A stretch of 62,406 nucleotides of DNA from Bacteroidales bacterium (lineage in GTDB: Bacteria > Bacteroidota > Bacteroidia > Bacteroidales > WCHB1-69): the NCBI GenBank assembly GCA_045627805.1, contig JAZQOJ010000178.1, positions 1 to 62,406 of the forward strand, given 5' to 3'. This document shows positions 22,001 through 39,843 of the stretch, piece after piece; position 1 is the first letter of the stretch; every line of letters begins with the position of its first letter. The notes under the pieces are model-generated. The model was not told where the DNA came from, ran no database searches, and saw only the letters and a list, made by a program, of their open reading frames with translations. Position numbers and translations under genes: made by a program.

Positions 22001-23782
22001 TGCCAGACTGTTTCTGAAATCTTGGTTGATGGTGTTTCTTACCTCAACAATGAAAACTTCGACGGTACTACCCTCACTTTGAATAACATTACCCGCGATA
22101 TGACCATTCAGGCATACTTCCAGGTGATGACTTATGAAGTTGAAGCCACTCAGACCGAAGGCGGTGCGATTACCGAAACCGGTATTTACAACTGCGGTAC
22201 TGACGTTGTTTACAACATCACTCCTGCTGCTTGCTATCAGATTGCTGACGTAATGGTTGACGGTGCTTCTGTTGGTGCTGTTACTTCCTACACCTTCAGC
22301 GCAATTGATGCTGACCATACCATCACTGCTACCTTCGAAATGGATACCTACACTATCACGGCTACTGCTGGTGAAGGTGGTGCTATTACTGCTACCAATA
22401 CCTTCAACTGCGGTGAAACTCCTACCTACACTATTACTCCTGATGAAGGTTACTTCGTAGAAGACGTTACTGTTGACGGCGTTTCAGCCGGTGCTGTTGA
22501 AACTTACACTTTCAGTGCACTGAATGCTGATCATACGATTGATGCTACCTTCGGTCAATACACCTTCAACATCACTGTTGGTGCTGGCGAAGGCGTTGAA
22601 ATCGACGTTAACGTTGATCCTGAAAACGTTGCTTACGGTACTGACGTTACCTACACCTTCACTGCTGATGAATGCTACGAAATCGTTGACATCTTCGTTG
22701 ATGGCGAAAGCGTTGGCGCAGCTGATAGCTACACTCTCTACAACGTGACTGAAAACCACGTAGTAACCGTTGAAACCGCAATTCTGACTTACACCATCAC
22801 TGCTACTGCTACTGGCAACGGTACCATTGCTCCTGCTGGTGAAACCAACGTTGATTGCGGCGGCGCTCAGTTCTACACCATCACTCCTGCTGCTGGTTAT
22901 GTAATCAGTGATGTTACTGTTGACGGTGAAAGCGTTGGCGCAGTTAACAGCTACAACTTCGAAAATGTTACTGAAGATCACTCAATCGAAGTCATCTTCA
23001 CCGCTATTGCTGATTCTACTTACACTATCACTGCTACTGCTGGTGCCAATGGTACTATCACTCCTGCTGGTGTCGTTACCGTTAACTACGGCGCAAGTCA
23101 GACCTTCACCATTGAGCCCAACACCTACTATGCAATCGCTGACGTATTGGTTGACGGTCAAAGCGTTGGCGCTGTTTCCACCTACACTTTCGCTAACGTA
23201 ACCGCTGATCACACCATCGACGTTACCTTCACCGAAGCTGAGTGCGAAACTCCTGCTAACCTCTGGACTTCTGACATTACCGAAACTTCCGCTACTTTGA
23301 ACTGGACCGATATGGGTGCTGCTTCTTATACTGTACGTTATCTTGCAAGTGGCGAAACCACTTATACTGAAATCACTGGTATTACCGATAACTTCTATGC
23401 ACTTACTGGTTTGCAGGAAGGTACTCGTTACTATTGGAACGTGAAGTCAGTATGTGTTGAAGACGTTGCTGAAAGCAACTGGAGCGCACAGCAAGAATTC
23501 ACTACCACTGCCACCCCGGTTGATACGACTGGCATCAACAATTACGATCTGACTTCAATCAATGTTTACAGCTATGGTAACGACGTTTATGTTGTGAACA
23601 ATGGCAACGAACAGATTAAGAACGTTCAGGTTTACGATGTGAACGGTCGCATCATCTTTGATGGTCAGGCACAAAGCAATCCTACTGTTATCAATGTAAA
23701 TGCTGCTAACGGAATGTATATCGTTAGAGTTGCAACCGAAAGCCGTATTAGCAACTACAAAGTTAGCATTTCACAAAGATAA
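13076..23782 (+). CDS. Giant (3568 aa) repetitive T9SS-exported surface protein, adhesin-like
   Basis: Signal peptide, N-terminal globular domain, FN3, several GCDS repeats, many ~75-aa beta-rich repeats (YTITATAG.NG.ITP...Y.I.DV.VDG...YTF..V...HTI...F; InlB-B/Flg_new-like), a C-terminal FN3 and a T9SS-type tail (VYDVNGR...GMYIVRV...KVSI). Confidence 0.85.
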   Translation: MKRFYTFRPENFRIFAKMKSFIAVALMMLMAVGNVNAQVYQLVTNAADLQVGDSIVIAASDYNKALGTGTNATATNRTAVDITKTNNLASWTSNVQVIKLETGEVSGTFAFKVDGGYLYAASNTGNQLKTQTTNDDEGSWLITIASNVASIVAQGDNTRNQLKYNTSGLFSCYGSTNTQPAVCIYKKSCPAVTDLASSNVAYNAATITWTSALANFDFQLNGTPQAYTPTHEGDVWTLNLDELDPETAYTFGVKLTCSAEYATTSFTTEAAPIISHVNEEYINACQTWNFAKLDGSNIICTETSILYDTLVGGASNGDDTIHIVHLTIGQPFDGDIYKTVCQNALPYTFGELTFGAESPVMEYPVAFEQTFTTPCGCDSTVRLHLTITEMFTATDEKTICENDLPYPWNGETFDAAGEKTVTLTASNGCDSVVTMTLTVNPNTAETITASIIENELPYRLNDSTYSTTGSYTQKLTNANGCDSIITLNLTVYENQFATANKTICASELPYTWDGVQFNEAGTKDTTLAGQGAHGVDSTVTMTLVVNPTYNIDVDSTICDGALPFPWNGLNFLTAGTMSVTLATANGCDSVVNMTLNVNYRDYENAGELTLCENELPYTWRDVTISENVADSTYTFVRTNAAGCDSTVTLHVLVNGTAACAFNVEYEQPEHGTIAGPATVNHGEDAEYTFTAESDCYYLEDVTLDGTSVMAQLVDNTLSLDSVVAHHALTATFAQYEYTVTATQVENATITATETYGCGEDATYTVTPAEGYHIVYVTVDGTPMTDIAEYTFENIHEAHTITATVAINTFNIVATAGENGSITPLGTTTVDWHTTPTYTIAPASCYEIATLTVNGSVIENPTNTYTFDSIEADATIDVTFQMIQYELTWESIGEGEGLVNGQPEGVFTTAMCGETVSNFPIHANTGSHIASVVWNNYPIVLGGTISDWTINIPMVVNASNTNVQVEFTIDTHVVTASVNDATMGEVVPATNTVNYNTADTVAVTANEGYHIASIICGNDTVEYGNNEDVTATYVVNNVTSDTAVMVNFAINEYTITMNYNEAEGTVTPGTTTVQHGADLAVTITPADCYHIANVQIDNVDVIDYNLTAVDANHVYDITFAIDQFAMTGVAHDATMGEVVEGTVDCGETYTYTINANTGYHLDSVKLGDEVIATYTDQAATQTCDVPAVHAATSIDAYFSINEYNVTATAENGEVNPADSTVAHGGSQTFDLIPNNCYELTSVLVNGTEMIADVVETPATRATLLDVNFSEVTSGGTQDCDAANGTITIGGVYSGWTGTRVYPANGKIKLGSGSSAGHVNLPTMDCSANDGNFHIAFDAKAWKNDATSLKVIVTTASGARTYTVAGLSNANDCEMSRFDIACTDGDAHTQITIDGAANANSRFFLDNVLVYTGSNAAYTLTVNDIEGETNVEATFSQIQYDVVTSVIEGNGDITPSFQLPCGTTNTVTMTAEEGSHIEYYTINGNLYTLGENDDAVRELTIEGTENDTIAVAFATNSYKVTTQVGNGQGSFTPATQFVDHGQDAIVMVVADTAHGYHIADIDGVVYGNNTDTVVYDTLYNVVSDTTVMANFALNLYPITVTNLNPDGGSVVPTTNNWTWGQNASFTITPNSPCFYISEITADGVTLVAGADYNVDGKVYTFNAVAEEHTLTVNFTDSVFNMTASVHPTSAATVNAGTAHCGEDFTYEIEAADGVHLSTIFVDGQLDTVFANQEDYYEYTIENIHENHNVIVYTEADLYTVEISGCADDINGTYDNVAYGQAFEFNLKPAECEYLSSFTINNVQYADSVVGGLYTWYANDNAVITATFDSIQYVMAETHTGNGTVSSDTVMCGEDFVYEVLADEGWHIASCILTDGIDSLELMSIPTTNADNNTTVNVTADANYALVVEFAINTYNVTACNTLTDGTITFEQAVVNHDASVEATVTATTAGMHVQTAFSDATNVATYGANDQTTVTYTLSNIVSDTCIDATFELNNYTITASVTDTENGEIIPVGDSAVRYGDTVEYVVRPTNDCHFITTVVVDDTTEIVVNDSAAFTYTFSAIEDNHTIVANFDTYTYVVATSVNDVTLGTITDGDTLDCGDIYNYTVTPAEGQHIVSVEVDGVAQTITDSSSFIGSIEDIHADANIVANFGINHYVIAVTAGENGSITPVDTVVEHGGSAKIHITPADCYYISELIVDGETANITNADGMEYLFMNIDRAHTVEANFAIYQYEMAETHTGNGTVTTATVDCGESYTYTVTADQGWHIESYDFAGIHYANMMTEPNDYNVQTVTVAPARQDTMLTVNFAIDTYTVTACTAVGGTLAVNDPVEVDSNSNTTVTVTADAANGYHIVAVTDNRGGSYELGANTDVEYTYEVNNVDQDIEVCATFALNTFNITATAGENGTIDPEGDATLTYGDSLTYTIEPNHTCYYISAINVDGANVWTGYTDSVSATTYTFTAANFDQSVVDHTIATEYSIFRYEMMSDVHNMSYAVVPGTVTSATVDCGTAYDYVINAATGYHIDHVVLDGETTSYEGQQANATVTVSDIHQNHNLEAYFAINHYDITASATENGTITPAGATDVEHFSSLTYTIVADEPCYHIADVLVDGASVGAVATYTFNNIAGPHTINAVFAINQYAMNETHTGEGTVTTAIVDCGSAYQYTMTAAEGWHIDNHTLGGTTYILNHNSDVVTYRNVTAATQDTTLDVVFARNQYIITVNTTGAGITNPGTDTVEYEDDATFTMTPAFGYHVADVLVDGESVGTQTSYTFNSVDANHTLDVTYEPDVFTVTASAANHGTITVAGDNEVVYNESVDFTIVADPCYNISAVLVDGTADANFEAGQTVATYTLNNVTANHTVEAQFAINTYNVTVNVMGNGTATPGTATYNCGDDVTINFVANAGSAVQSVVVNGTNIGNVPSYSILDIAADYTIDVTFADNTYTLNAIAYNNGTITPAGETVVAEGANVTYTLTPDACQTVSEILVDGVSYLNNENFDGTTLTLNNITRDMTIQAYFQVMTYEVEATQTEGGAITETGIYNCGTDVVYNITPAACYQIADVMVDGASVGAVTSYTFSAIDADHTITATFEMDTYTITATAGEGGAITATNTFNCGETPTYTITPDEGYFVEDVTVDGVSAGAVETYTFSALNADHTIDATFGQYTFNITVGAGEGVEIDVNVDPENVAYGTDVTYTFTADECYEIVDIFVDGESVGAADSYTLYNVTENHVVTVETAILTYTITATATGNGTIAPAGETNVDCGGAQFYTITPAAGYVISDVTVDGESVGAVNSYNFENVTEDHSIEVIFTAIADSTYTITATAGANGTITPAGVVTVNYGASQTFTIEPNTYYAIADVLVDGQSVGAVSTYTFANVTADHTIDVTFTEAECETPANLWTSDITETSATLNWTDMGAASYTVRYLASGETTYTEITGITDNFYALTGLQEGTRYYWNVKSVCVEDVAESNWSAQQEFTTTATPVDTTGINNYDLTSINVYSYGNDVYVVNNGNEQIKNVQVYDVNGRIIFDGQAQSNPTVINVNAANGMYIVRVATESRISNYKVSISQR

Positions 23783-26160: not shown

Positions 26161-27042
26161 TCACAATTCCACGAACTCGTAAGAGTCATCGCGTTTGAAC
26201 CAAGTCATTTGCCGTTTTGCATAGCGTCGGGTGTGGGTTTTGATGTCGGTGACGGCTTGGTTGAGGGACGTTTTCCCATCAAGATAATCAAAAAGCTCCT
26301 TATATCCTACCGTATTCAGTGAATTAAGGTGTTTGTAGGGATATAATTCTTTGACTTCCTGAAGGAGTCCTTCATCCATCATTGCGTCCACTCGTTGGTT
26401 GATGCGGTCGAAGAGGACATCGCGCGGCCGTGTGAGGCAGATTTTCACGATGTCGAAATCGCGTTTTTTTCTGTTGTTTTTCAGGAAGAAGGAGTAAGGT
26501 TTCCCCATTTGGAGTGAGACTTCCACGGCGCGCATAATACGTTTGAAATCGGACGGGTTGCAGCGCTGATAATAGTCGGGATCGACGATGCGGAGTTGTG
26601 CGCGGAGACCATCAACACCTTCATTTTGATAACATTCGTTGACGTACTGCCGTATTTGTGGTTCGGGGTCGGGGAGGTCGTCGATGCCATAGCAAACGGC
26701 ATCGATGTAAAGTCCGGAACCGCCGGTCATCACTACCACATTGTTTTTAGCGAAGAGAGAGGGGAGCAGAGCCAGCACATCCTGCTCGAAGCGAGAAACG
26801 CTGTAATAATCGTTGATGGAAAGGTTGCCTATGAAGTAATGTTTCACCAGGGAAAGTTCCTCGGGCGTTGGTGCTGCGGTGCCGATTTTCATTTCCCTAT
26901 AAAACTGACGCGAATCTGCCGAAAGCACGACAGATTCGCAATGGATGGCTGTTTGTATTGCGAATTGGGTTTTCCCGACGGCGGTCGGCCCCGCAATAAC
27001 CAAAAGCGTGGGTTTGTTAAAAGTCGTTGATGCTAATTTCAT
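26161..27042 (-). CDS. miaA: tRNA (adenosine(37)-N6)-dimethylallyltransferase
   Basis: GPTAVGKT, SADSRQFY, GTAAP, GGSGLY, VGYKE and TRRYAKRQMTWF. Confidence 0.96.
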   Translation of the reverse strand: MKLASTTFNKPTLLVIAGPTAVGKTQFAIQTAIHCESVVLSADSRQFYREMKIGTAAPTPEELSLVKHYFIGNLSINDYYSVSRFEQDVLALLPSLFAKNNVVVMTGGSGLYIDAVCYGIDDLPDPEPQIRQYVNECYQNEGVDGLRAQLRIVDPDYYQRCNPSDFKRIMRAVEVSLQMGKPYSFFLKNNRKKRDFDIVKICLTRPRDVLFDRINQRVDAMMDEGLLQEVKELYPYKHLNSLNTVGYKELFDYLDGKTSLNQAVTDIKTHTRRYAKRQMTWFKRDDSYEFVEL

Positions 27043-27610
27043 TCAAATCGCTGAAGTCGTCATCATTGAAACCATCATCAAAGGTAGAGTCTTCATCGTC
27101 ATCTTCATTGAGGAGGAAGTCATCATCAGGATCGGGGAGCCGGTTTTGCTTAGTGGGTTTGGGGAGTTCCTTCTCTTTGCGGGTGCAGCGAGGATAGGTT
27201 ACGCCTGCCTCGGATTCAAGAATTTTGAGTAGTTCAATGTAGAAGACTTTGGGAGAATTGTAATCGTATTCATACATAAGGTGTTGGTGCGGATCAGAGA
27301 TGAAATCCTTGAGGATGGAATCTGTCATCACGGAGAGTGGGAGGTGCGAGCGAAGGGCGAACTCATCGCTTTCTTCGTACTGCGGTTCCTCCTTTTCAGA
27401 GTCATCGCTCATATCCATCAAGGTGATTTCTTTCTGCTTGTTCCATTTAGAGTCGCAAATGTAGAAGGAGGCGAGTTCACCTGCTGCGAGGCCGATGGAA
27501 GAAAGGAGAATTTTGTGGAAACTCTCAAACGAGTCGTTGGAAAGGATTTCAATGTCGCGGACAAAATCCTCGACTTCATCGTAATAAACTCTAAATTTGT
27601 AGTAGTACAT
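27017..27610 (-). CDS. Conserved Bacteroidota protein (pRiA4b ORF-3 / IS1096 passenger TnpR-like fold) with acidic tail
   Basis: FVRDIEI...FH..I...ASFYICD..W.K.KEITL pattern, YEYDY and YPRC. The acidic C-terminus overlaps the miaA start. Confidence 0.65.
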   Translation of the reverse strand: MYYYKFRVYYDEVEDFVRDIEILSNDSFESFHKILLSSIGLAAGELASFYICDSKWNKQKEITLMDMSDDSEKEEPQYEESDEFALRSHLPLSVMTDSILKDFISDPHQHLMYEYDYNSPKVFYIELLKILESEAGVTYPRCTRKEKELPKPTKQNRLPDPDDDFLLNEDDDEDSTFDDGFNDDDFSDLNEISINDF

Positions 27611-28989: not shown

Positions 28990-30531
28990 ATGCTCATACG
29001 AACTCATAGTTGCGCCCTGATGGGTGTTGCTGCCATTCCCATCACAGTTGAAGTAAATGTAGAAATCGGTGTCGGTTATTTCTTGGTCGGGTTGCCCGAT
29101 AGTGCGATTAAAGAGAGTCAGCACAGAATTGATACGGCCTTAAGGAATTACAATCTAAGGATTCCCGTACGCAAAATCATTATTAATATGGCTCCTGCGG
29201 ATATTCGCAAGGAAGGAGCTTCGTTTGATTTGACGTTGGCGATAGGAATTCTGGTGGCTTCGGGGCAGATTAACGGAGCGGAAATCGTGGAGGATTATTA
29301 CATAATGGGCGAACTTTCGCTGGATGGCTCGTTGCAGTCGGTGAAGGGGGCCTTGCCGATGGCGATAGAGGCGAAGCGACGCGGCAAGCGAGGCGTGATT
29401 TTGCCGATTCAGAATGCGCGTGAAGCGGCCATTGTGGATGGAATTGAGATACTTGGAGCAGAGAACATTAAGCAGGTCATTGACTTTTTTAATGAAGGGA
29501 TTCCCATAGAACCGACCACGATTGACATCAAAGACGAGTTTCAAAAAAGTTTGAACAATTACGAATACGATTTTTCTGATGTAAAGGGGCAGGAGAACAT
29601 CAAGCGGGCACTGGAGATCGCTGCGGCTGGAGGTCACAACGTGATTTTGATTGGTCCCCCAGGTTCCGGAAAGACTATGCTGGCCAAGCGGTTGCCCTCA
29701 GTGTTGCCACCGTTGACGTTGGACGAGGCGTTGGAGACTACTAAGATTCACTCGGTGGCGGGCAAGATGAGTCGCTATGCTTCCTTGATTTGCGTCAGGC
29801 CCTTCCGCGCGCCACATCACACGATTTCGGATGTGGCGTTAGTGGGAGGCGGGCAGCATCCGCAGCCGGGAGAGATTTCTTTGGCGCATAATGGAGTGCT
29901 GTTTTTGGATGAGTTGACCGAGATGAATCGCGCCACGCTGGAGGTCCTCCGCCAGCCGTTGGAAGACCGCTGCATTACCATTTCTCGTTCTAAGTACTCG
30001 GTTGATTTCCCTGCTTCGTTTATGCTGATTGCGGCAATGAATCCGTGCCCGTGCGGAAATTACAACAATCCGAAAATTCCTTGCACTTGCCCGCCAGGTG
30101 TGGTGCAAAAGTATTTGGCGAAAATTTCGGGCCCACTTCTTGATCGAATTGATCTGCACGTGGAGGTGAAGCCGCTCAGTAACGATGAACTTCTCACCAA
30201 GGCCAAAGGGGAGCCGAGTGCGGTGGTGAGAGAACGAGTGGTTCGGGCTCGCAACATACAGGCGGAACGCTATAAAGATTGTCCTGACGTGCATTGCAAC
30301 GCCCAAGTGAACACCAAGTTGTTCCATCAGTATTGCGTGATTGACGAGGGGTGCAAGGCGTTGATGAAGACAGCGATGGATCGACTTGGCCTTTCCGCTC
30401 GTGCGTATGACCGGATTCTGAAGGTGGCACGCACCATTGCCGATCTTGACGGAAGCCCGAACATCAACTCCGATCATCTGTCGGAAGCAATTAATTTCAG
30501 AAGTTTGGACCGCGATAGCTGGGGCCGGTAA
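28990..30531 (+). CDS. comM: YifB/ComM Mg-chelatase-like AAA+ ATPase
   Basis: VGLPD..IKES, INMAPADIRKEG, GPPGSGKT, RPFRAPHH, GEISLAHNGVLFLDE, MNPCPCG, SGPLLDRID and SARAYDRILKVARTIADL. The frame is intact. Confidence 0.95.
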   Translation: MLIRTHSCALMGVAAIPITVEVNVEIGVGYFLVGLPDSAIKESQHRIDTALRNYNLRIPVRKIIINMAPADIRKEGASFDLTLAIGILVASGQINGAEIVEDYYIMGELSLDGSLQSVKGALPMAIEAKRRGKRGVILPIQNAREAAIVDGIEILGAENIKQVIDFFNEGIPIEPTTIDIKDEFQKSLNNYEYDFSDVKGQENIKRALEIAAAGGHNVILIGPPGSGKTMLAKRLPSVLPPLTLDEALETTKIHSVAGKMSRYASLICVRPFRAPHHTISDVALVGGGQHPQPGEISLAHNGVLFLDELTEMNRATLEVLRQPLEDRCITISRSKYSVDFPASFMLIAAMNPCPCGNYNNPKIPCTCPPGVVQKYLAKISGPLLDRIDLHVEVKPLSNDELLTKAKGEPSAVVRERVVRARNIQAERYKDCPDVHCNAQVNTKLFHQYCVIDEGCKALMKTAMDRLGLSARAYDRILKVARTIADLDGSPNINSDHLSEAINFRSLDRDSWGR

Positions 30532-30755
30532 AATTGGTGGAAGGGGTCAGCATACGTTGTCACTTGCTCCACTTATCTTGACCGTAGATGCAGCTCCCCA
30601 CCTGAAAACAATACTTCGCAACCATACACTGGTTGGCGACGACAAACCACATATAGGCTGCGACAATGTTAGTCGCTTGGTTGTAATGAAGAATAGAATA
30701 GTATCAATGGTTGCACTATTGGTATTCAGTTAATTACAATTCTATTAAAATGGAT

Positions 30756-30792
30756 AGGGATAACCCAAACAACAAGTTATCCCTGTTTTTTT
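30756..30792 (+). terminator. Probable intrinsic terminator in the spacer after comM
   Basis: agggataac-(11 nt)-gttatccct followed by G and T7. Confidence 0.6.
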
Positions 30793-30833
30793 ACATAATA
30801 TCCCACTTTACAGAAATTCGGCTTTGGCGATTG

Positions 30834-30841
30834 TATTTTTG
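30834..30841 (+). promoter_or_regulatory. -7 element upstream of the two small island genes
   Basis: TATTTTTG, about 42 bp before the ATG at 30884. Confidence 0.5.
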
Positions 30842-30883
30842 CTCCATCATTTTTGAAAAATAAAACAAAAAAAAGAGCAAGTT

Positions 30884-31174
30884 ATGATCCATACTAGAAA
30901 TTTCCATCTAACCGATCATTTCCTCTACCGCAAATGGGACAGAGGAGTAGAAGATTCCACAATCAATGCCATTATACGTTATGTCTCCACAGAAAGCGAG
31001 GAACAAACCATAATAGCTTTCCCGTGGTTTTTGCGTAATCATGGAGAGAAAACCCAGAACTGCTTGGTGGTAATCTTCAAAGAAAGGAATATCGTCACCA
31101 CCTATTGGCGAACCATGGAAGAAATCTTGTTCAATAGGTTCCACGCTGATAATATCAGAACTTTAATTAAGTAG
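30884..31174 (+). CDS. Small protein resembling DUF4258 / BECR-fold ribonuclease toxins
   Basis: N-terminal LTDHF..R..DRGV....I pattern and C-terminal LVVIF....IVTTYW pattern. Similarity judged by eye. Confidence 0.5.
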   Translation: MIHTRNFHLTDHFLYRKWDRGVEDSTINAIIRYVSTESEEQTIIAFPWFLRNHGEKTQNCLVVIFKERNIVTTYWRTMEEILFNRFHADNIRTLIK

Positions 31175-31196
31175 CAACCATTTAAATATCAAGACT

Positions 31197-31607
31197 ATGG
31201 AAGCCACAGACAAAAAAATCATTTTGAAATTGCAAGGCAGAAAAAAGTATACAACAAGCGTAAGCGATATTGTATGCATTGAATCCATCCCATACAATAG
31301 CAATAATAAGATTATTTATTTCAAAGTCCATAGGGCGGAAGTACTGGTTAATTTCTCGGCGAGCAAAGACATCGCAGGAAAGCTTCAGCTTACCGATGGC
31401 GAATTGGTGGAGGTCGGTCGAGGCGTCTGGGTCAACGCTGAGCAAGTAAAAAAATGGCTCAAAGAACACCGACATCTTCATTGGAAAAACGGGGCTAGTA
31501 TAAACGTGAATGTGAGAAATGCGAATGGAGCTGTAGAGGAAAATCACAAGTGTTTTATCAGTCGGGCAGCCTTCGGAAGAATCAAAAAACTTGAACGATG
31601 CGCATAA
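31197..31607 (+). CDS. Stand-alone LytTR-like DNA-binding domain protein
   Basis: VSDIVCIES...IIYF...LVEVGRGVWVN..QV...LHWKNG pattern matches the LytTR consensus. No receiver domain. Confidence 0.6.
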   Translation: MEATDKKIILKLQGRKKYTTSVSDIVCIESIPYNSNNKIIYFKVHRAEVLVNFSASKDIAGKLQLTDGELVEVGRGVWVNAEQVKKWLKEHRHLHWKNGASINVNVRNANGAVEENHKCFISRAAFGRIKKLERCA

Positions 31608-31718
31608 AATTCACCACTCGTTCCCCATTGAAAAACAATCAAATACAATCTCGTGTTAAGATGCTGTAGAAAATATGAATGTACCATATGACTGTTGCCC
31701 CATGTTTATGCTCTTATG

Positions 31719-31731
31719 TGACATTTTGTCA
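31719..31731. promoter_or_regulatory. Palindromic operator-like site TGACA-N3-TGTCA upstream of nrdG
   Basis: tgacattttgtca, about 140 bp before the nrdG ATG. Confidence 0.35.
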
Positions 31732-31868
31732 GTACAATTTACCATGGCATCGTTTGTGTTGAGTATCAACAATTATCACTATGATAGACCTTTCAAGATT
31801 CAATTCAATTATCAATCATTTAACCTCCATTAATTCAAAAGAAGGATATTTTCAATAATACTTTGAAT

Positions 31869-32309
31869 ATGAAAATCTATTACAATTCAATTAAAGAAAA
31901 CCCATCGCTGGTGGATGGGCCAGGCTACAGAACTGTAGTCTTCTTACAAGGATGCGACCTGCATTGCAAAAATTGCCAAAACCAAGGAACCTGGAGCCCG
32001 GAGTCTGGTCACTCGGTAGATGTCAAAGATTTAGCTCAATTAATAAGGGAACATAGTTTCAACAAAAAAATCACTATCAGCGGCGGAGAACCGCTCTTGC
32101 AAAAAGCCGCCCTGTTAGAGCTGATCAATGAATTGCAAGGATACAATATCTGTTTGTATACAGGCCACCAAATTGAGGATGTTTCCCAAGAAATTTTAAA
32201 CAAAATCCACTACATAAAATATGGCCCTTTTAAGGAAAGTTTGAAAACAAGTACAATGCCATTTGTCGGTTCAAGTAATCAAATTTTTAAAGCAATAAAC
32301 CATGAATAG
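31869..32309 (+). CDS. nrdG: Anaerobic ribonucleotide reductase activating enzyme (radical SAM)
   Basis: SLVDGPGYRTVVFLQGC, CxxxCxxC (CDLHCKNC), ISGGEP, YTG and GSSNQ. Overlaps nrdD by 8 bp. Alternative TTG start at 31863. Confidence 0.92.
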   Translation: MKIYYNSIKENPSLVDGPGYRTVVFLQGCDLHCKNCQNQGTWSPESGHSVDVKDLAQLIREHSFNKKITISGGEPLLQKAALLELINELQGYNICLYTGHQIEDVSQEILNKIHYIKYGPFKESLKTSTMPFVGSSNQIFKAINHE

Positions 32310-33999
32310 TCAAGAAAAAAATGACAATGCGGCTAACCGTAAAAGTTACGTCGGCCACATTTACAATGATGGCGAAAAACTCACTAAAGAAGAGATATTG
32401 AATTCGTTGTCCCCTCAGTGGGCCGAATTGCATAGGAAAGGATACATCCATATCCACGACTTGGATGCATACGGTCTCACTTACAACTGCCTGACCTTTG
32501 ACATTCAAAAGAAGTTCCCCTATGAATCTTTTATGGGAATGTCAACTGTCAAAAAAATTACCGGTGTATTCAGCTTCCTTCAAGAATTGTTTGCCAAAAT
32601 CGGCAACGAACAAAGTGGCGGAATGTCTTTGGCCAACTTTGACAATGATATGGCAGACATTTTTACGAAACTACAGGTCGATTACCGGGGAAATGAGGAA
32701 ATCTTTCAAGCTGCTGTGAGGAATATGATTCTGTGGTGCAATAACACACACACAAGAATGGGGCAAACAAGCTACTATGTTTCATTCAACATCGGCCTTG
32801 CCGACAATGATTTTGCACGCTTTCTGGCTTATACACTGATTGATGAATTCTATCAAGCCGGGAACTTGGTTTACAAACCGAATATCATATTCAAAGTTGC
32901 TGGTGGCGTCAATAGATTCCCCGATGACCGAAATTATGATTTGCTGTTGAAAGCGCTGGAATGCACTGGCAAAAAGATGATTCCGACTTATTTGCTCTGC
33001 GATTGCGAAATGGACAAAATAATAGATCCGGCATTATTGTCCATTATGGGCTGCAGAACGAGAGTAGTTGACGATTTGTACGGAAAAACGGGCGCCATCG
33101 GGAGAAGCAATGTCGACAACATTTCAATTAACCTGCCGAGATTGGCCTTAGAAGTTGAAAAAGATTTTCCGGCTATTCCAGTAGAAGCCAAGTATGAAGA
33201 ATTGAAACGCAAATGGTTGGCTGTCGCAGAAACCACCAAGGACATTTTGCTGGATCGTTATGAGAAAACTTGTAAATGCGAATCAGCTTGGTTCCCAACG
33301 AATAAGCAATACAATTTGTGGTGTGATGATGTGGAAAAAGTGGGAGTTGAAGGCATCTTGAAACATGGCACCTTGTCCATCGGATTCATCGGCCTGAGTG
33401 AAATGCTGGAAGTATTGTTCTATGGAAAATTCTGGGAAAAGGAAGAAATCTATCGCTATGCCGAGGACTTCTTGCAATTTATGAGGGGATATGTTGATGA
33501 ACAAAAGGAAAAATATCATTTGAATTTCTCACTCTTGGCTACAAGTGGCGAACTTATCAGTGGAAGATTTGTGGAATTGGATAAAAAGGAAGGTTTCACG
33601 TCTCCCATTATGGAAAAGGGATTTTATACCAATTCATTCCATGTTGAAGTGGACAGCAAACTTGTGGCGTGGAAGAAAATTCAGCAAGAGGGACCTTTCC
33701 ATAAGTATTGCAACGGTGGTTGTATCACCTATGTTGAACTGGAAGAAGCACCCATTGGAAATCCTGAAGGCCTGCTGGAACTGATTGAAGTGGCTGTGAC
33801 TGCAGGCGTACATTATTTGGGTTTCAATTTCAATAAAGATGTCTGCAACAATTGCGGAGAAAGCGGAATTTTTGATGTGTGCCCTTGCTGTGGCAGCCAC
33901 GACATCACTCGAATCAGAAGAGTGAGTGGTTATCTTGAAATTGTAGACGGCTTTACATCCGGTAAAAAAAATGAAGTGAGAAATAGAAAATCAAATTAA
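32302..33999 (+). CDS. nrdD: Class III (anaerobic) ribonucleoside-triphosphate reductase, short form lacking an ATP cone
   Basis: IHIHDLD, YNC, NEQSGG, finger-loop MGCR, SINLPR, SIGFIGL, YTNSFH, Zn ribbon CNNC...CPCC and glycyl-radical motif RRVSGYL. 565 aa. Confidence 0.9.
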   Translation: MNSQEKNDNAANRKSYVGHIYNDGEKLTKEEILNSLSPQWAELHRKGYIHIHDLDAYGLTYNCLTFDIQKKFPYESFMGMSTVKKITGVFSFLQELFAKIGNEQSGGMSLANFDNDMADIFTKLQVDYRGNEEIFQAAVRNMILWCNNTHTRMGQTSYYVSFNIGLADNDFARFLAYTLIDEFYQAGNLVYKPNIIFKVAGGVNRFPDDRNYDLLLKALECTGKKMIPTYLLCDCEMDKIIDPALLSIMGCRTRVVDDLYGKTGAIGRSNVDNISINLPRLALEVEKDFPAIPVEAKYEELKRKWLAVAETTKDILLDRYEKTCKCESAWFPTNKQYNLWCDDVEKVGVEGILKHGTLSIGFIGLSEMLEVLFYGKFWEKEEIYRYAEDFLQFMRGYVDEQKEKYHLNFSLLATSGELISGRFVELDKKEGFTSPIMEKGFYTNSFHVEVDSKLVAWKKIQQEGPFHKYCNGGCITYVELEEAPIGNPEGLLELIEVAVTAGVHYLGFNFNKDVCNNCGESGIFDVCPCCGSHDITRIRRVSGYLEIVDGFTSGKKNEVRNRKSN

Positions 34000-34009
34000 C
34001 ATCAACATT

Positions 34010-34582
34010 ATGAAATATTACATTTCAGATTTGCACTTTGAAGACCAAAGAGTCTTTAAAAAATGTTCAAAAGAGCGTTATTTCAAGGATTTGAACGAGT
34101 ATGCGGAAAAAATTATCGAGAATTGGAACCGAGTAGTGAACGATACAGATGAAGTCTATATACTGGGTGACATTGCCGAGGACCATTTTGAGAAAGTCGT
34201 AAGTGTACTTAAGCAATTAAAAGGCCAAAAACATCTTATTGTGGGGAATCACGACATTCCGTTACGGGAATTGTTTGAAAAATCAGGCATCTTCCTGTCT
34301 GTCCAGGACAATTTACTGATTGAAGACGACAACAGAAAAGTCCACTTATCTCACTATCCTTTAATGGATTGGATGGAATTTAGCCGGGATGGATATTTGA
34401 TATATGGGCATATACACAACAAAACACCAGAACAAAATCCAGCGTACAGGCAAATAAAAGAGTATTATGCTGACAAGTTGGCATTCAACGCAAGTTGCGA
34501 TGTAATCGGTTACGTACCAAGAACTTTAGATGAATTAATCAACCTTAAAAAACAAAATGCAAATGAAACATTTATCAATTGA
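34010..34582 (+). CDS. Calcineurin-like metallophosphoesterase (phage-associated type)
   Basis: SDLHF, NWN..V...D.VYILGD, GNHD, SHYP and YGHIH motifs. Confidence 0.88.
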   Translation: MKYYISDLHFEDQRVFKKCSKERYFKDLNEYAEKIIENWNRVVNDTDEVYILGDIAEDHFEKVVSVLKQLKGQKHLIVGNHDIPLRELFEKSGIFLSVQDNLLIEDDNRKVHLSHYPLMDWMEFSRDGYLIYGHIHNKTPEQNPAYRQIKEYYADKLAFNASCDVIGYVPRTLDELINLKKQNANETFIN

Positions 34583-35147
34583 GGGTATGGATGGCATTGG
34601 GAAGTCCACCACCTGTGAATTGTTATCCCAAAAATTGGTTTTTACATTTGTTGAAAAACCATTACACTTGTTGTTCGACAAATCCCCTGATCGTATTGAT
34701 GAATACATCCGTATCAGAGATCAGGTGAACGCCAACCCAAACAGAGATTTTACATCATGGTTCTATGGACTTGGAAGCCTGTATATGTATAATAAGTATC
34801 AAAATGAGAATATTGTAACCGACCGTCACCTCGCCTCCAACTATGCTTGGAGTGGAACTGAAAACAACAAGGATGTGTACCAACTTTTATTGAAAAAACT
34901 GGGCAAACCGCAATTGACTGTTATTCTGAAAGCTTCCGAAGAAACCGTTTTGGCAAGATTGAAAAAAAGAGATTCAGAAGACAGCGACATTAATAAGGTG
35001 CATAAAACGGCAATGATTTGTAACAGAATGATTGAATTCTGTGAGGAATATGAATTGCCTTATATGGTGGTGGATTCAAGTGATTTAACCCCAGAAGAAG
35101 TGGTAGAAAAAATTATAGAAAAATGGAATACGATATGCGAGGAATAA
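34563..35147 (+). CDS. Thymidylate-kinase-like P-loop nucleoside monophosphate kinase
   Basis: SIEGMDGIGKSTT P-loop, VTDRH.AS (DRX motif) and LID-like ARLKKR. Overlaps both neighbours. Confidence 0.82.
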   Translation: MKHLSIEGMDGIGKSTTCELLSQKLVFTFVEKPLHLLFDKSPDRIDEYIRIRDQVNANPNRDFTSWFYGLGSLYMYNKYQNENIVTDRHLASNYAWSGTENNKDVYQLLLKKLGKPQLTVILKASEETVLARLKKRDSEDSDINKVHKTAMICNRMIEFCEEYELPYMVVDSSDLTPEEVVEKIIEKWNTICEE

Positions 35148-37546
35148 GTGATTTGCGACTCAGCAAAAACATGAAATACACGGCTCTTTATTGGTCAATG
35201 CGATTCACCGAACGTGAACCTGACGTATTCATCAAGCAATATGAAAACGGTATCGCATTGACCATCAAGGCCAATGAACAAAAGGTTTACTACCAAAATA
35301 GTCCGATTCTGAATCTGGATACCCACGAGAGTTTTGTCGTTCTAGAACTAATAAACCGATTATTCCAACTCGGTTATACTTTTGAAGATGTTCAATTCTC
35401 TGAAAATCAGGTACTTTTCAAAAATTTTCGGATAAATTGTTTCGTATGGGATGAGGAAATGCCTTATCCGACAGAAAACGACACGGTTTATTATAAATCA
35501 CGCCTTGTCAGCGGCGTTTTGGAGTATGTCTCTAAAATAAGAATGAACGACAAATGCTACGACTATGGCCTATTCGGAGAAACAGACGGCTTGACATCAA
35601 AGGAAAAGAAAGATTTTTGTTCGGCTGACTTCATATATGATGAAAACCGTCTGATGAAGTACTGCGGAAAAGAGAAAATTGTTGTGGTTCCTGATGGAAC
35701 GGAAGAGATTGAGTCTTGTGCCTTTTGGGATAATCAATATATTGAAGAGGTGAAAATTCCGGATTCTGTCACAAATTTTGGAGGCGATACTTTTTATAAT
35801 TGTAAAAATTTGAAAAAGGTCAACATTCCTTCCAATGTGAAGGTGATGGGCAACAATCCTTTCGCCGGTTGTCCGGAAGTCAAAATTGAAAATCAATCGC
35901 CGTTCTTTCTTTATGAAAATGGAATTCTTTACAACAAAGGAAGAGACCAGGTTATCTATTGTTCCATTATCGGTGAGGAAAAAAGTTTGGAAATCCCTGA
36001 AGGTGTGAAGATCATCGGCAAACATGCTTTCTATTTGTGCGATCGATTTGAAAAAATCGTTCTCCCTTCTTCCATTGAAAAAATGGAAAACAATCCTTTT
36101 TCGGGTTGCTCAAAATTGGAACTGTTGTCAAAGTCAAAAGCGTACCGAATCCAAGATGATGTGATTTATAATGGCTTTATGACTTCAGTAACAGGCTGTC
36201 TGAACAGAATAAAATCTGAAAATCTTGTAATACCGGAAGGCATCAAAACTATCAACAGAAATTCCTTTTGGAATTGTAAGGGGATTAAAAAGATAACTTT
36301 GCCGGAATCCCTGGAAGATATCGGTTACAATCCTTTCGTATCTTGCTCAAACATCCATTTTGAAAGCAAATCCAAACATTTCAACGTAATTGATGATGTA
36401 TTGTACAATGAAGATTGTTCTAAAATAATTTGTTACCCAGCTTGGAAAGCGGTCGGCAAGGTGAAATTGAAGGATAGCGTGATAACATTGGAAAGGGGCG
36501 CTTTTTCCGATTGTAATAAGATGACAGAAATAGACCTCCTTAATGTGAACACCATCAGCAAATCCTGTTTTACAAACTGCACTTCATTGCAAAAAATCCA
36601 TTGTTCTGATCTGGTTACATACATCGGAGAATGGGCTTTTGCCTATTGCAGCAGCCTTCAATCCATATCTGTCAATAAAAAAACGACCATCGATAATAAT
36701 GCATTTTCAAATACAGATGTGGATGTGATCAAAAGAGGGAAACTGGAGAATTACCTGATTGAGTCAGACAACACTTATACGCTAAGCTCAATGTCAAAAT
36801 TCTATAAAGGCAAAATCGATTCCATTTTGATTGATCCACCTTATAATTCTAAAATCGACTACATCGGTTATAAAGATGATCAGTTTGCAAATGGGTATGG
36901 GGAATTTATGAAAGAACGTTTGGTAAAAGCGTATGAATTGTTGACGGAAAAGGGGTTCTTGATTATAAATATAGATGAAGGTGAAGTAGAAAATCTCACA
37001 CGATTATGCAGGAATATCTTTGGCAAAAAGCTGGTTTCTGTACACGGTTGGAAGAAAAAACATCCGTTGTTTGATCAAAACAGGGTCATTTTGAACCCAA
37101 ACAAGGTACAGACAGATTACGAGTTCATCATTGTGTGCCGAAAATCTGAGCATTCAAAACTGGGGAAAGTGTCTCAGCCATATTATGCCAATGGGGTATG
37201 GAAGGAAAAAATGGTGGATTTCCCTCAAAATTTTGATTGTTTTGGAACAACATCTTCTGCCAAAGATGAAATAGAAGAGATTTTTGGAGATAGAACCTAT
37301 TTCTCAACACCAAAACCTGTGAAATTAATCAAGGAATTTGTTCGCGCGACAACGGACAAGGAATCTTTGGTGCTGGATTTTTTTGCAGGTAGTGGTACGT
37401 TAGCGCACGCAGTAGCCGAAATGAACATAGAAGATGGTGGAAACCGTGTTTTCATTCTGGTTAATAATCATGAAAATGATGTGTGCGATAATGTGATTAA
37501 AAAGAGACTTGATTATTTGAATGTGAAATATTCTCAATTGGGTTGA
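35123..37546 (+). CDS. Fusion protein: degenerate restriction-nuclease-like N-terminus, BspA-type leucine-rich repeats and beta-class N6A/N4C methyltransferase
   Basis: LRR_5-type repeats (IPEGVKIIGKHAFYLC, LPESLEDIGYNPFVSC). MTase motifs NYLIESDN, IDPPYN (DPPY 36833-36844), FSTPKP and VLDFFAGSGT in beta order. The start could be 35135 or 35171. Confidence 0.85.
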   Translation: MEYDMRGISDLRLSKNMKYTALYWSMRFTEREPDVFIKQYENGIALTIKANEQKVYYQNSPILNLDTHESFVVLELINRLFQLGYTFEDVQFSENQVLFKNFRINCFVWDEEMPYPTENDTVYYKSRLVSGVLEYVSKIRMNDKCYDYGLFGETDGLTSKEKKDFCSADFIYDENRLMKYCGKEKIVVVPDGTEEIESCAFWDNQYIEEVKIPDSVTNFGGDTFYNCKNLKKVNIPSNVKVMGNNPFAGCPEVKIENQSPFFLYENGILYNKGRDQVIYCSIIGEEKSLEIPEGVKIIGKHAFYLCDRFEKIVLPSSIEKMENNPFSGCSKLELLSKSKAYRIQDDVIYNGFMTSVTGCLNRIKSENLVIPEGIKTINRNSFWNCKGIKKITLPESLEDIGYNPFVSCSNIHFESKSKHFNVIDDVLYNEDCSKIICYPAWKAVGKVKLKDSVITLERGAFSDCNKMTEIDLLNVNTISKSCFTNCTSLQKIHCSDLVTYIGEWAFAYCSSLQSISVNKKTTIDNNAFSNTDVDVIKRGKLENYLIESDNTYTLSSMSKFYKGKIDSILIDPPYNSKIDYIGYKDDQFANGYGEFMKERLVKAYELLTEKGFLIINIDEGEVENLTRLCRNIFGKKLVSVHGWKKKHPLFDQNRVILNPNKVQTDYEFIIVCRKSEHSKLGKVSQPYYANGVWKEKMVDFPQNFDCFGTTSSAKDEIEEIFGDRTYFSTPKPVKLIKEFVRATTDKESLVLDFFAGSGTLAHAVAEMNIEDGGNRVFILVNNHENDVCDNVIKKRLDYLNVKYSQLG

Positions 37547-37629
37547 ATTAAAAAATGCATCCTATCAATAGTGGCGAATAATATATCATCATTTTTTGGA
37601 CAAACTGTGTTTTGTTGCTGAATTAATAG

Positions 37630-37637
37630 TAATTTTG
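37630..37637 (+). promoter_or_regulatory. -7 element upstream of the 5'-nucleotidase
   Basis: TAATTTTG, with TTTG about 16 bp upstream. Confidence 0.5.
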
Positions 37638-37671
37638 CCGCACTGATTTTGAAAATTAAATATCATACAAT

Positions 37672-39318
37672 ATGTTGTTAATTAAAAGATTACGAGTATT
37701 ATTTGTCTTTGCATTTTCATTATTGTGGGGAGTAGTCCTTCTGGGGCAAACTCCGGCGGCATTGTCTAATATCACGAAACAGGATATTGTGATATTGTTC
37801 GATAATGATGTTCATTGTGCGATTGATGGCTATGCGAAAATGGCATCGCTGCGCGACGAGGTCAAGAAAAAGACTTCTCGCGTGCTGGTGGTTTCAAGCG
37901 GTGATTTCGCTTCGGGCAAGTCGTTAGGGTCTGCATCGAAAGGCGAATACCTTGTGCGAGCGATGAATATGGTGGGATACGATTATGTGACACTGGGCAA
38001 TCACGAGTTCGATTTTGGTATTCCTCAGATGAAAACTTTCCTCTCTAATCTAAAATCTAAAGTGTTGTGCTGTAACTTTTTAAACGTATCGGATAACAAG
38101 AGCGTGTATGATGGATTTGAAATCCGAGATTTTGCAGGAACGAAGGTGGCGTTGATTGGTGTGGCCACTCCCGCCACCATCAGTGCGGGCACCCCGTCGA
38201 ATTTCCAAAATGAAAACGGTGAATTCATTTATACGTTCTGTATGAGCAATCTCGCTCAGATTGTGCAAGAAACCGTCAACGAGGCGCGTCGCCAAGGTGC
38301 TCAGTATGTGGTTCTGCTTTCCCATTTGGGAACGGTTCCTCCAGGTGTGACTTCCGATCAATTGATTGCGCAAACCACAGGCATTGACGTGGTTCTAGAT
38401 GGACATTCCCATAGCGTGATTCCGGAGCAGAAAGTGAACAACCGTAATGGAGAATCTGTGATTCTGACTTCAACTGGAACTGAATTCGCAAATATTGGGG
38501 CTTTGCTTATCCATTCAGGTAAAATGAGTACCTGTTTGATTCCTACAAGTGAATATGCGGCCGTGAATCAGAAAGTGGCAGCCGAAATTGCAAAGATTAA
38601 GGAAGAGTATGCCGTGATTGGCAATCGTGTGATAGGTAGTAGCGATGTGAAGTTGACGATTAACGACGATACTGATAGAATTCGTATTGCCCGCCGTCGG
38701 GAATGTAATCTTGGCGATTTTGTTTCGGATGCGTTTCGCATTATGATGGATGCGGAAATTGGTTGGGGAAATGGCGGTGGATGTCGTGCGAGCATTCCTG
38801 CTGGTGATTTGACTTTTAATGCGATATTTTCAGCATTCCCTTTTGAAAATCAAGTGTATGTGGTGGACGTGCCAGGACAGGATATTTTGGACGCACTGGA
38901 AATGTCGGCGCACGCCACTCCTCAGGAGTTTGGCGGATTCGCTCAGGTTTCGGGACTAACGTATCAAATTGATACTACCATCGCCTCCTCTGTGGTGAAG
39001 GATTCAAATGATGTTTTTGTGAAAGTGGCAGGAAAACGTAGGGTGAGCGATGTTCGCGTTTACAACCCAACGAAAGGAAAATATCAGAAACTTTCTCCCA
39101 GAAAGCATTACCAAATGGCAACAACCAGTTTCATTCTGATGAAGGGCGGAGATGGCTTGCGTTTCCCTCATTATCAAGTAATTCGGGAATATCCTAATCT
39201 CGATGTGGATTTGATTGAAGATTACATTCGTCACACTTTAAACGGGCATATTGATGCGCAATATGCGAAGCCGCAGGAGAGAGTGGTGTTTAAAAGCAAA
39301 GGGAAGAAAGGTAGATAG
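37672..39318 (+). CDS. Exported bifunctional metallophosphatase / 5'-nucleotidase (UshA/CpdB family)
   Basis: Signal peptide; NDVH, SGD, LGNHEFD, LSHLG and DGHSH; C-terminal domain NGGGCRA...PFEN...QVSGL...GGDG. Confidence 0.9.
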   Translation: MLLIKRLRVLFVFAFSLLWGVVLLGQTPAALSNITKQDIVILFDNDVHCAIDGYAKMASLRDEVKKKTSRVLVVSSGDFASGKSLGSASKGEYLVRAMNMVGYDYVTLGNHEFDFGIPQMKTFLSNLKSKVLCCNFLNVSDNKSVYDGFEIRDFAGTKVALIGVATPATISAGTPSNFQNENGEFIYTFCMSNLAQIVQETVNEARRQGAQYVVLLSHLGTVPPGVTSDQLIAQTTGIDVVLDGHSHSVIPEQKVNNRNGESVILTSTGTEFANIGALLIHSGKMSTCLIPTSEYAAVNQKVAAEIAKIKEEYAVIGNRVIGSSDVKLTINDDTDRIRIARRRECNLGDFVSDAFRIMMDAEIGWGNGGGCRASIPAGDLTFNAIFSAFPFENQVYVVDVPGQDILDALEMSAHATPQEFGGFAQVSGLTYQIDTTIASSVVKDSNDVFVKVAGKRRVSDVRVYNPTKGKYQKLSPRKHYQMATTSFILMKGGDGLRFPHYQVIREYPNLDVDLIEDYIRHTLNGHIDAQYAKPQERVVFKSKGKKGR

Positions 39319-39333
39319 GGAAGAATCGCTGAA

Positions 39334-39843
39334 CTACTCTTCGGGACGCAGTGCTGAGCGCATCTGAGTGTAATATAGCCAGATGAACAGAATGGTCCAG
39401 CAAATGCCCCCGATCCCCATTTGTAACGGCGCACCTACGAGGAAATTTAAACAGCTGAATCCTAATAGTTGGGCAATTATGTAAAAATGAAATCCTAACT
39501 TGTTCATTTTAAGCATAAAAGCAGCGCCAACGACGGCTAAAACATAGGTAAGTGCGGTAAGAATGAATTTCCAATCGGGCACAAGTGCGATGGCATCGTA
39601 AATTGGTGCATTTTGTTCATAAATGCTTTCCCACCCCAATTGCTCGTAATAACTTTGCAGTGTGGGGAACATATTCTTGGTAAACGGCATTGTGAAGTAT
39701 GTCAGTGCGTTACATCCGGAACCGATGAATGTGAGGATACATAATACGGTTAGGAGCGGGGTGCGTTCGGGCTGTTGTCTGACTTCATTCTGCCAGCCGT
39801 TATTGTTTTCGGAATTCTCGTAATTGTTTTCAAATTCTTCCAT
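39334..39843 (-). CDS. Hypothetical membrane protein
   Basis: Likely start MEEFENN at 39843; LTVLCILTFIGSG and about four TM segments. Overlaps the tilS 3' end. Confidence 0.65.
   Translation of the reverse strand: MEEFENNYENSENNNGWQNEVRQQPERTPLLTVLCILTFIGSGCNALTYFTMPFTKNMFPTLQSYYEQLGWESIYEQNAPIYDAIALVPDWKFILTALTYVLAVVGAAFMLKMNKLGFHFYIIAQLLGFSCLNFLVGAPLQMGIGGICWTILFIWLYYTQMRSALRPEE

Follow-up and report, generated by a model that had tools for sequence, protein, structure and literature searches.

What does a BspA-type leucine-rich repeat (LRR) domain do on a cytoplasmic DNA methyltransferase (MTase), in a gene that closes an operon for anaerobic nucleotide metabolism? The question is raised by a 62,406-nucleotide stretch from Bacteroidales bacterium (lineage WCHB1-69; GenBank assembly GCA_045627805.1, contig JAZQOJ010000178.1, positions 1 to 62,406 of the forward strand; the whole stretch is referred to below as the window), in which a single open reading frame (ORF) joins a family-specific N-terminal domain (N-domain), an LRR_5 solenoid, and an MTase domain in one chain, here called LRR-MTase. 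We favor, at a probability of about 0.5, a reading of LRR-MTase as an orphan DNA adenine MTase of the Type III Mod-like kind, whose obligate partner arm is composed of the N-domain and LRR and whose gene is carried on a mobile cassette predicted to supply deoxynucleoside triphosphates (dNTPs) under anaerobic conditions.

Domain architecture of LRR-MTase

In the window's ORF calls the gene is a single unbroken frame of 807 codons on the plus strand, which comprises the following features.

35123-37546, plus strand: LRR-MTase ORF, 807 aa, N-domain plus LRR_5 plus MTase, with the likely start at 35135 (M5)
35123-35632, plus strand: N-domain, aa 1-170, alpha/beta fold, almost exclusive to the LRR-MTase family
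35633-36736, plus strand: BspA-type LRR_5 solenoid, aa 171-538, built of three 79-aa super-repeats and then terminal LRRs
35846, 36083, and 36320: DNA repeat family D1, 26 nt at 237-nt spacing, the DNA echo of the 79-aa super-repeat
36737-37546, plus strand: beta-class, Type III Mod-like DNA MTase domain, aa 539-807, assigned from PF01555, PADLOC, PDB, and Foldseek matches
36833-36844, plus strand: motif IV, D571-P-P-Y574, predicted catalytic, read from the sequence and kept in at least 95% of the family
37382-37399, plus strand: motif I, F754-A-G-S-G-T759, predicted S-adenosylmethionine (SAM) binding, read from the sequence and kept in at least 95% of the family

The true start is probably M5, which would give a protein of 803 aa, since the database entry of the same protein has this length and its homologs begin at that residue. 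Pfam places LRR_5 (PF13306; E = 1.6e-55, four stretches) at about aa 170 to 536 and N6_N4_Mtase (PF01555; E = 8.9e-34, 117.8 bits against a cutoff of 26.7) at aa 565 to 770, in agreement with a first-pass annotation that had put LRR_5 repeats at about aa 170 to 535 and an MTase at about aa 540 to 807 of one uninterrupted 807-aa ORF without a signal peptide. The last point is borne out as well: the Kyte-Doolittle(19) profile, a general measure of hydropathy rather than a dedicated predictor of anchors or signal peptides, shows no hydrophobic segment (maximum 0.78 in the first 70 aa and 1.16 over the whole 807-aa protein), and the Pfam matches of the protein include no anchor or secretion domain. 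Because there is no hydrophobic N terminus or segment and a SAM-dependent DNA enzyme is attached, LRR-MTase is predicted to be cytoplasmic.

A structural model of the protein alone, proposed earlier as a check, proved confident (AlphaFold2, whole chain, 24-row alignment; mean predicted local distance difference test score [pLDDT] of 88.9, predicted template modeling score of 0.84) and suggests a fairly rigid three-domain body. In a family alignment of 90 sequences, where residues kept in at least 95% were counted as conserved, mean column identity is 0.65 in the LRR, 0.66 in the MTase, and 0.52 in the N-domain. The identities of the domains co-vary (r = 0.94 for N-domain and LRR; r = 0.86 for N-domain and MTase), with no swapping of the N-domain of the kind seen in target-recognition domains.

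Conservation of the fusion and a split form of the protein

The fusion is real, widely conserved, and old. The best 120 database homologs listed, the window's own protein among them, are 792 to 811 aa long and 60 to 100% identical to the query over at least 98% of its length, and every one of them carries both the LRR_5 and the MTase Pfam families. A pattern scan covering one genome per prokaryotic species recovered a relative in at least 121 species genomes, and 80 of these loci were retrieved; the neighborhood comparison encompassed 82 loci. Contigs from other public sequencing runs span the junction between the upstream kinase gene and the ORF as well as both domain junctions (run X4, 35095-35738 and 36468-36987; run X1, 36549-36769); parts of the window lacking contig cover in the compared runs were left uninterpreted. 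A chimeric assembly at the junctions, or the lack of any homolog that keeps the fusion, had been named beforehand as what would undo it. Since contigs from independent runs bridge both junctions and all 120 listed homologs are full length, the fusion stands.

A second form of the protein, found in a deep sister clade, is encoded by two genes. Family members of about 550 aa stop exactly at the LRR/MTase boundary, and the fetched loci include 14 ORFs with N-domain and LRR that are followed by an adjacent MTase ORF of about 280 to 290 aa. A quick maximum-likelihood tree of 74 rows places 19 of the 21 split rows in one clade (support of 99 in the Shimodaira-Hasegawa-like approximate likelihood ratio test [SH-aLRT]) and all 53 fused rows, including that of the window, in the opposite clade; the remaining two split rows are Mycoplasmatota loci inside the fused clade and may be artifacts of genetic code or assembly. 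That the same protein exists both as one chain and as two adjacent genes argues that the arm and the MTase would be obligate partners.

The ORFs of the split pairs (L061-L077 and L080) abut or overlap by up to 43 nt in different frames, and translational coupling could result. Translation table 11 appears to break the genes of the cassette into several ORFs in two loci, L053 (Mycoplasmataceae) and L054 (Ureaplasma ceti), which would be explained if TGA were read as Trp. Relatives occur in two cultured isolates, Brachyspira catarrhinii Z12 (L080) and Ureaplasma ceti OM1 (L054).

The methyltransferase domain

Motifs IV and I of the MTase domain are both intact, and motif IV precedes motif I, as in beta-class enzymes. 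A DPPY motif is usually taken to suggest adenine-N6 as the target. Sequence relatives in the PDB at E ≤ 1e-5 consist only of three Mod subunits, 6k0w (3.5e-24), Mbo45V 7dsu (9.7e-21), and EcoP15I 4zcf (3.8e-20); the mod protein of phages P1/P7 is 37% identical to the domain, and the Type III MTase models of PADLOC (MTase_III) match it with a best E value of 3e-44, in two or three separated pieces. The target-recognition insert is about 100 aa shorter than that of the EcoP15I and 6k0w Mod proteins (query residues 149-184 correspond to EcoP15I 253-399, and 107-131 to 6k0w 227-329), and the residual insert is conserved (W643, K645, D651, N653, and G708-E716). Foldseek comparison with small beta-class MTases gave TMt values of 0.72 to 0.74 for M.BceJIV, 0.73 to 0.76 for M1.HpyAVI, and about 0.63 to 0.65 for MboIIA and RsrI. 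No Res gene lies beside LRR-MTase in the window, where the neighbors are a kinase gene upstream and a 5'-nucleotidase gene downstream, and the 82 loci share no conserved large neighbor, a comparison of neighbors that included no direct search with a Res profile; we therefore read the MTase as a putative orphan.

The LRR solenoid and the N-domain

Foldseek matches the LRR to the structures 4gt6, 4h09, and 4fs7. The "F...DGVLY" spacers pointed out in the first reading of the sequence are real and form part of three 79-aa super-repeats, in which an NPF(A/S)GC motif has its proline at residues 246, 325, and 404. A search for longer homologs returned giant LRR_5 proteins, none of the 120 listed carrying PF01555, in a result so swamped by surface proteins that it is uninformative on larger fusions.

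The N-domain occurs almost exclusively in this family. Only 59 hits were recovered when it was compared by HMMER to 1.84 billion representative proteins, and the ten of these that were checked in Pfam all contain LRR_5: three are fused with an MTase (805 to 822 aa), six are about 550 aa long without the MTase, and one is a 337-aa piece. Modeled separately, the domain attains a pLDDT of 88.6. Its initial label of "nuclease-like" is weakly supported, by restriction-endonuclease-like folds scattered among the low-scoring rows; against it, the domain has no Pfam family, no significant fold match, and no catalytic acid pair. Pfam returned only DKNYY (E = 0.039) at E ≤ 10, with no family assigned, and Foldseek found nothing at E ≤ 0.001 in the PDB or BFVD (best E of 0.2 and 0.054, respectively), with BsaXI among the weak rows at E 0.6 to 0.8. 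An exhaustive VIA structural scan, for which noise typically reaches a best Z of 7 to 8, peaked at Z 5.5 with a Mediator subunit; also within noise are the rows for the N terminus of HsdR EcoR124I (Z 5.0, root mean square deviation 3.8, 85 aligned), tRNA-splicing endonuclease (Z 5.0 to 5.1), I-Ssp6803I (4.3), the DrdV N terminus (3.8), and Hjc (3.6). Among the 30 nearest clusters in an ESM Atlas language-model search, 21 belong to a set partly carrying HSDR_N_2 (score 0.93; the HSDR_N_2 share is 12 to 22% of members in the two top clusters), and one is an Hjc cluster.

An hhalign comparison of the N-domain profile with an alignment of 30 HSDR_N_2 proteins gave a probability of 0.1 and set the ExK strand opposite a gap. 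Conserved residues of the domain are K18, Y19, Y23, K38, E75, W109, Y124, S126, R127, and S130, with E75 as the sole acidic residue. Genuine HSDR_N_2 proteins show a clear E...D...ExK motif; the 90 family sequences show neither this motif nor a conserved catalytic acid pair in the N-domain. Given the weak fold rows, the hhalign probability, and the single conserved acid, we take the N-domain for a possible endonuclease-like fold in degenerate form and not for a nuclease.

The nucleotide-metabolism cassette

LRR-MTase is the last cistron of a tight operon, the other members of which are as follows.

31863-32309, plus strand: nrdG, activase of the anaerobic ribonucleotide reductase (RNR) and first core gene (Fer4_12, E = 4.9e-29; TIGR02491, E = 7.3e-28, below the curated cutoff; phrog_626)
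32302-33999, plus strand: nrdD, anaerobic ribonucleoside-triphosphate reductase, 565 aa (NRDD, E = 3.1e-104; TIGR02487, 332.5 bits, above the cutoff of 326.35)
34010-34582, plus strand: calcineurin-like metallophosphoesterase (MPE), an optional member (Metallophos_2, E = 2.6e-7; phrog_547, E = 5.3e-40)
34557-35147, plus strand: P-loop nucleotide kinase resembling thymidylate kinase (TMK) and deoxynucleoside kinase (dNK) (Thymidylate_kin, E = 1.9e-16; dNK, E = 1.1e-9; below the TIGR00041 cutoff)

These genes overlap or nearly abut, the start of nrdD overlapping the end of nrdG and the kinase gene overlapping its neighbors on either side. Where the upstream sequence extends far enough to tell, the kinase occurs in 74 of 74 loci, nrdD in 63 of 63, nrdG in 59 of 59, and the MPE in 40 of 59. 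The kinase gene lies directly upstream of the LRR-MTase gene in all 74, and gene order is invariant in the 82 loci wherever upstream DNA suffices, with the MPE sometimes after the kinase. The first-pass annotation had taken the protein as cytoplasmic and, in one alternative, as a possible scaffold for the other operon products. Both the predicted location and a functional link of LRR-MTase to the operon are supported by the kinase and NrdDG, whose synteny with the gene is invariant.

The cassette matches phage protein families (phrog_626, phrog_487, phrog_547, and phrog_761). The kinase has, as residues invariant in 30 sequences, G10-K16 of the P-loop, the D89-R90 motif, R134, and R138. Its weak hits in PADLOC are PDC-M51B (E = 9.6e-14) and VakA (E = 1.1e-11). 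NrdD is the only NRDD match in the genome and is found in the cassette only; another RNR is encoded on a different contig. In a metatranscriptome run (X5), contigs 99 to 100% identical to the window within 31800-37700 cover nrdG, nrdD, MPE, LRR, and MTase, which hints that the cassette is expressed, with DNA carry-over possible in that library. One locus, L081 (10220-12081), is the only one to have a split LRR and MTase without the N-domain, nrdDG, and kinase, despite 10 kb of upstream DNA.

Horizontal mobility and genomic context

The cassette moves horizontally, as seen from its position in a low-GC island, its absence from relatives, the scrambled host labels of its homologs, flanking recombinases, and a phage-borne copy. 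The island is delimited by its GC contrast and by the lack of a same-genus DNA match.

30540-37670: low-GC island, comprising the cassette and three small ORFs upstream of it

GC content is 0.36 to 0.41 in the cassette genes and 0.456 in the window; the next gene, encoding the 5'-nucleotidase, is host-like at 0.448. The flanks are a Bacteroidota-type chromosome (type IX secretion sorting domains, yifB, tilS, miaA, and holB). None of 40 related genomes, 18 of them from the same genus, carries the fusion (two have unrelated LRR-only matches), and none of five same-genus genomes has a DNA match to 30537-37780. The host labels of relatives (Clostridia, Bacilli, Mycoplasmatota, Spirochaetota, Bacteroidota, Cloacimonadota, and others) are intermixed across the tree. 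The cassette appears to move between phyla, and part of the intermixing may reflect mis-binning where contigs are short. The genome of a Heliusvirales phage (PV036423.1), complete at 57 kb, contains nrdG, nrdD, the kinase, and the split pair, adjoined by recombinases, and one IMG/VR contig contains a fused cassette next to a serine integrase.

Upstream neighbors in related loci include an unknown 148-aa protein (40 loci), an unknown 272-aa protein (29), DUF4238 (22), helix-turn-helix (HTH) repressors (12), large serine recombinases (11), and Abi_2-like proteins, and 18 loci have a DEDDh-exonuclease-like protein downstream. The set of DUF4238, 272-aa, and 148-aa genes upstream of nrdG (L031-L079 and others) could be part of a larger element. 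None of these accessory families (c5, c6, DUF4238, DEDDh-like exonuclease, HTH repressor, serine recombinase, Abi_2, and others) gave a hidden Markov model hit at E ≤ 1 between 26 and 42 kb of the window. Around the island, the only att-like repeat is a 35-nt inverted pair with 74% complementarity (30771-30805 and 39470-39504), which we do not trust, and the window contains no tRNA genes.

Several other genes of the window were noted. Three small plus-strand ORFs (98, 96, and 136 aa) at 30437-31607, between yifB and nrdG, have no family match and are unrelated to the 148-aa protein of the 40 loci. The 5'-nucleotidase/metallophosphoesterase directly after the cassette (37672-39318, plus strand, 548 aa; phrog_19584, E = 1.7e-73) is not kept beside the cassette elsewhere and has weak DNA matches in two same-genus genomes. 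A single 3568-aa ORF spans 13076-23782 on the plus strand, with type IX secretion sorting domains nearby, and a PRiA4_ORF3-like protein, of a plasmid-associated family, is encoded on the minus strand at 27017-27610 with miaA on one side and a YebC-family gene on the other.

Possible functions of LRR-MTase

In the mechanism that we consider most probable, the catalytic part would be a cytoplasmic DNA N6-adenine MTase with a compact beta-class domain, permanently tethered to a noncatalytic arm formed by the family-specific N-domain and the LRR_5 solenoid. The mobile element would supply its own anaerobic dNTPs through the RNR, kinase, and phosphoesterase, and the orphan MTase would mark DNA of the element or the host, whether for protection against restriction or as an epigenetic mark. 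The arm may hold the MTase on a conserved partner, such as DNA, the replication machinery, or a cassette enzyme. Since the LRR is highly conserved and the three domains co-diverge without swapping, the sequences argue for a partner that would be either universal or carried along with the cassette.

Several points weigh against this reading. Methylation itself, its target, and its sequence specificity are putative, as is the partner of the arm, and the strict linkage of the MTase to the kinase and RNR is unneeded for a plain anti-restriction MTase and is left unexplained. The pI of the N-domain is acidic at 4.8 (family mean 5.7) and the charge of the LRR is near neutral, which does not favor simple DNA binding by the arm. 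Further, only one relative was confirmed among 37 IMG/VR pattern matches, the whole protein is present in one of 92 phage records with a match, and many flanks consist of common chromosomal genes, ABC transporters among them; given so few viral records and such flanks, a phage module is not the general context of the cassette.

In a different account, the LRR arm would scaffold the RNR, kinase, and phosphoesterase together with the MTase, and dense or nonspecific adenine methylation would be tied to dNTP synthesis or replication. This account is in line with a gene order in which the kinase (74/74), nrdD (63/63), and nrdG (59/59) invariably accompany the MTase; the gene overlaps, which suggest co-translation, fit it as well, and a strongly conserved LRR would suit a partner borne on the cassette. 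Phage clusters for hydroxymethylcytosine (hmC), hydroxymethyluracil (hmU), and Z combine a modifying enzyme with a deoxynucleoside monophosphate (dNMP) kinase, a nucleotide phosphohydrolase, and RNR, and the scaffold can be likened to them by analogy. The shortened target-recognition insert is compatible with relaxed specificity, but what remains of it roughly equals in size the small target-recognition regions of sequence-specific beta-class MTases. PF01555 enzymes are moreover base-flipping DNA enzymes, for which we know of no precedent of action on free nucleotides, and interaction among the cassette proteins is putative. We hold such a scaffold to be unlikely. Still less likely is a restriction-modification-like or host-DNA-scavenging enzyme in which the N-domain would be an active divergent PD-(D/E)xK nuclease and the LRR a spacer fixing its distance from the MTase, much as in single-chain Type IIG/IIL enzymes, such that unmethylated DNA is cut and the products are recycled by the kinase and RNR. 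The adjacent dNMP-type kinase would fit recycling, and the VIA, Foldseek (BsaXI), and ESM Atlas rows include weak matches to nuclease domains; however, every VIA score is within the noise of the tool, the profile comparison with HSDR_N_2 gave a probability of 0.1 with the ExK strand opposite a gap, one conserved acid (E75) stands in place of E...D...ExK, and a nuclease plus MTase without a recognizable specificity domain would be odd in a phage nucleotide operon.

The first-pass annotation had favored a ligand-gated effector whose LRR senses a phage protein and switches the MTase on, and this proposal fares poorly. In related loci the cassette is often close to DUF4238, Abi_2, and recombinase genes, as is typical of defense islands; LRRs act as sensors in NLR-type immunity, and the kinase has its weak PADLOC matches to PDC-M51B and VakA. 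The LRR is nevertheless as conserved as the MTase, more so than the N-domain, and its divergence runs parallel to that of the other domains, with no swapping, which speaks against a sensor that evolves fast to follow phage proteins. Pfam, NCBIfam, and PADLOC detect no NTPase (NACHT/NB-ARC/STAND) or oligomerization switch, PADLOC recognizes only the MTase part with no system model beyond a generic MTase, the gene is itself present in a complete phage genome, an MTase is an improbable abortive effector, and DUF4238, Abi_2, and the other accessory neighbor families are missing from the window. We accordingly rate an anti-phage effector as very improbable. An artifact, be it a chimeric assembly or a chance ORF, has next to no probability in the face of 120 full-length homologs among the 120 listed, the 121 species genomes, the junction-bridging runs, and the confident AlphaFold2 model.

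Implications

Our preferred reading, an orphan adenine MTase with a partner arm, bears on a large conserved family that puts BspA/LRR_5 repeats, usually seen as extracellular adhesin modules, in the cytoplasm on or beside a DNA MTase. Relatives are present in at least 121 species genomes of several phyla and in one phage, and the cassette is common in metagenome-assembled genomes from gut and rumen, where it could shape methylomes and restriction barriers. In the loci examined, the absolute linkage to the anaerobic RNR and TMK-like kinase points to a coupling of dNTP supply and DNA methylation that lies outside current pictures of orphan and phage MTases. A more speculative extension, which we consider doubtful, is that the arm is a new type of MTase partner that couples the DNA adenine MTase to the dNTP enzymes of the cassette or to the replisome, making the five genes a "make and mark DNA" unit; if true, such a unit could give replication-coupled or near-wholesale adenine methylation, and the cytoplasmic role of its BspA-type LRR would be one never described for this repeat class. 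These ideas are directly open to experiment, as they concern a single gene with natural split variants and two cultured carriers.

Literature searches found no description of the architecture of N-domain, LRR_5, and MTase, and family members are named in databases only as "leucine-rich repeat protein" or "DNA modification methylase." Matched passages of a paper on Heliusvirales (PMC11283538) mention only generic DNA methyltransferases, and its supplements might list the cluster; those of a further paper (PMC7648426) have no bearing on the architecture.

Comparison with known systems

The repeats of LRR-MTase are of the same type as those of BspA/LRR_5 surface proteins of gut Firmicutes and Bacteroides (4gt6, 4h09, 4fs7, and adhesins of the HupY/LrrG type), including the "...DGVLY..." inter-repeat units, but LRR-MTase has no signal peptide, anchor, or secretion domain and is fused to a SAM-dependent DNA enzyme. 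The remainder of the cassette corresponds to phage nucleotide-metabolism modules of NrdDG, dNMP kinase, and phosphoesterase, the same module being annotated in phage NatCom_17901, whereas an obligatory terminal gene for N-domain, LRR, and MTase is not a described component of these modules. RNA repair of the Pnkp/Hen1 type also combines a kinase, a metallophosphoesterase, and a methyltransferase, and was rejected as a counterpart: the kinase here is TMK/dNK-like, the MTase is of the PF01555 DNA type, and there is no ligase.

At the level of concept, Type IIG/IIL enzymes of the MmeI/DrdV type similarly place an N-terminal endonuclease-like domain, a spacer, and an MTase in one chain, and in the HsdS/HsdM logic of Type I systems an MTase relies on a separate noncatalytic subunit. 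These systems have gamma-class MTases, helical spacers, and clear PD-ExK motifs, in contrast to the LRR spacer and unconserved catalytic residues of LRR-MTase, and the likeness is one of analogy only.

The nearest relatives of aa 539-807 in both sequence and structure are the Type III Mod subunits (EcoP15I, Mbo45V, 6k0w, and P1/P7 Mod), with which the domain shares DPPY before FxGxG, an "IDPPYN" block, and a "DFFAGSGT...ED" block. Unlike them, it has no full-size target-recognition domain and no Res neighbor in the 82 loci, and it is joined to a 538-aa extension of N-domain and LRR, or accompanied by a separate upstream gene for these, that is foreign to those Mod proteins. Small beta-class Type II and orphan N6-adenine MTases (M.BceJIV, M1.HpyAVI, MboIIA, RsrI, and CcrM) show only 15 to 22% identity to the domain and carry no LRR or N-domain, and to our knowledge none is linked to nrdDG and a kinase. 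They do resemble it in catalytic-domain size and fold (TMt 0.63 to 0.76), and they act as DNA MTases on their own, in keeping with the stand-alone MTases (about 280 aa) that the split clade encodes.

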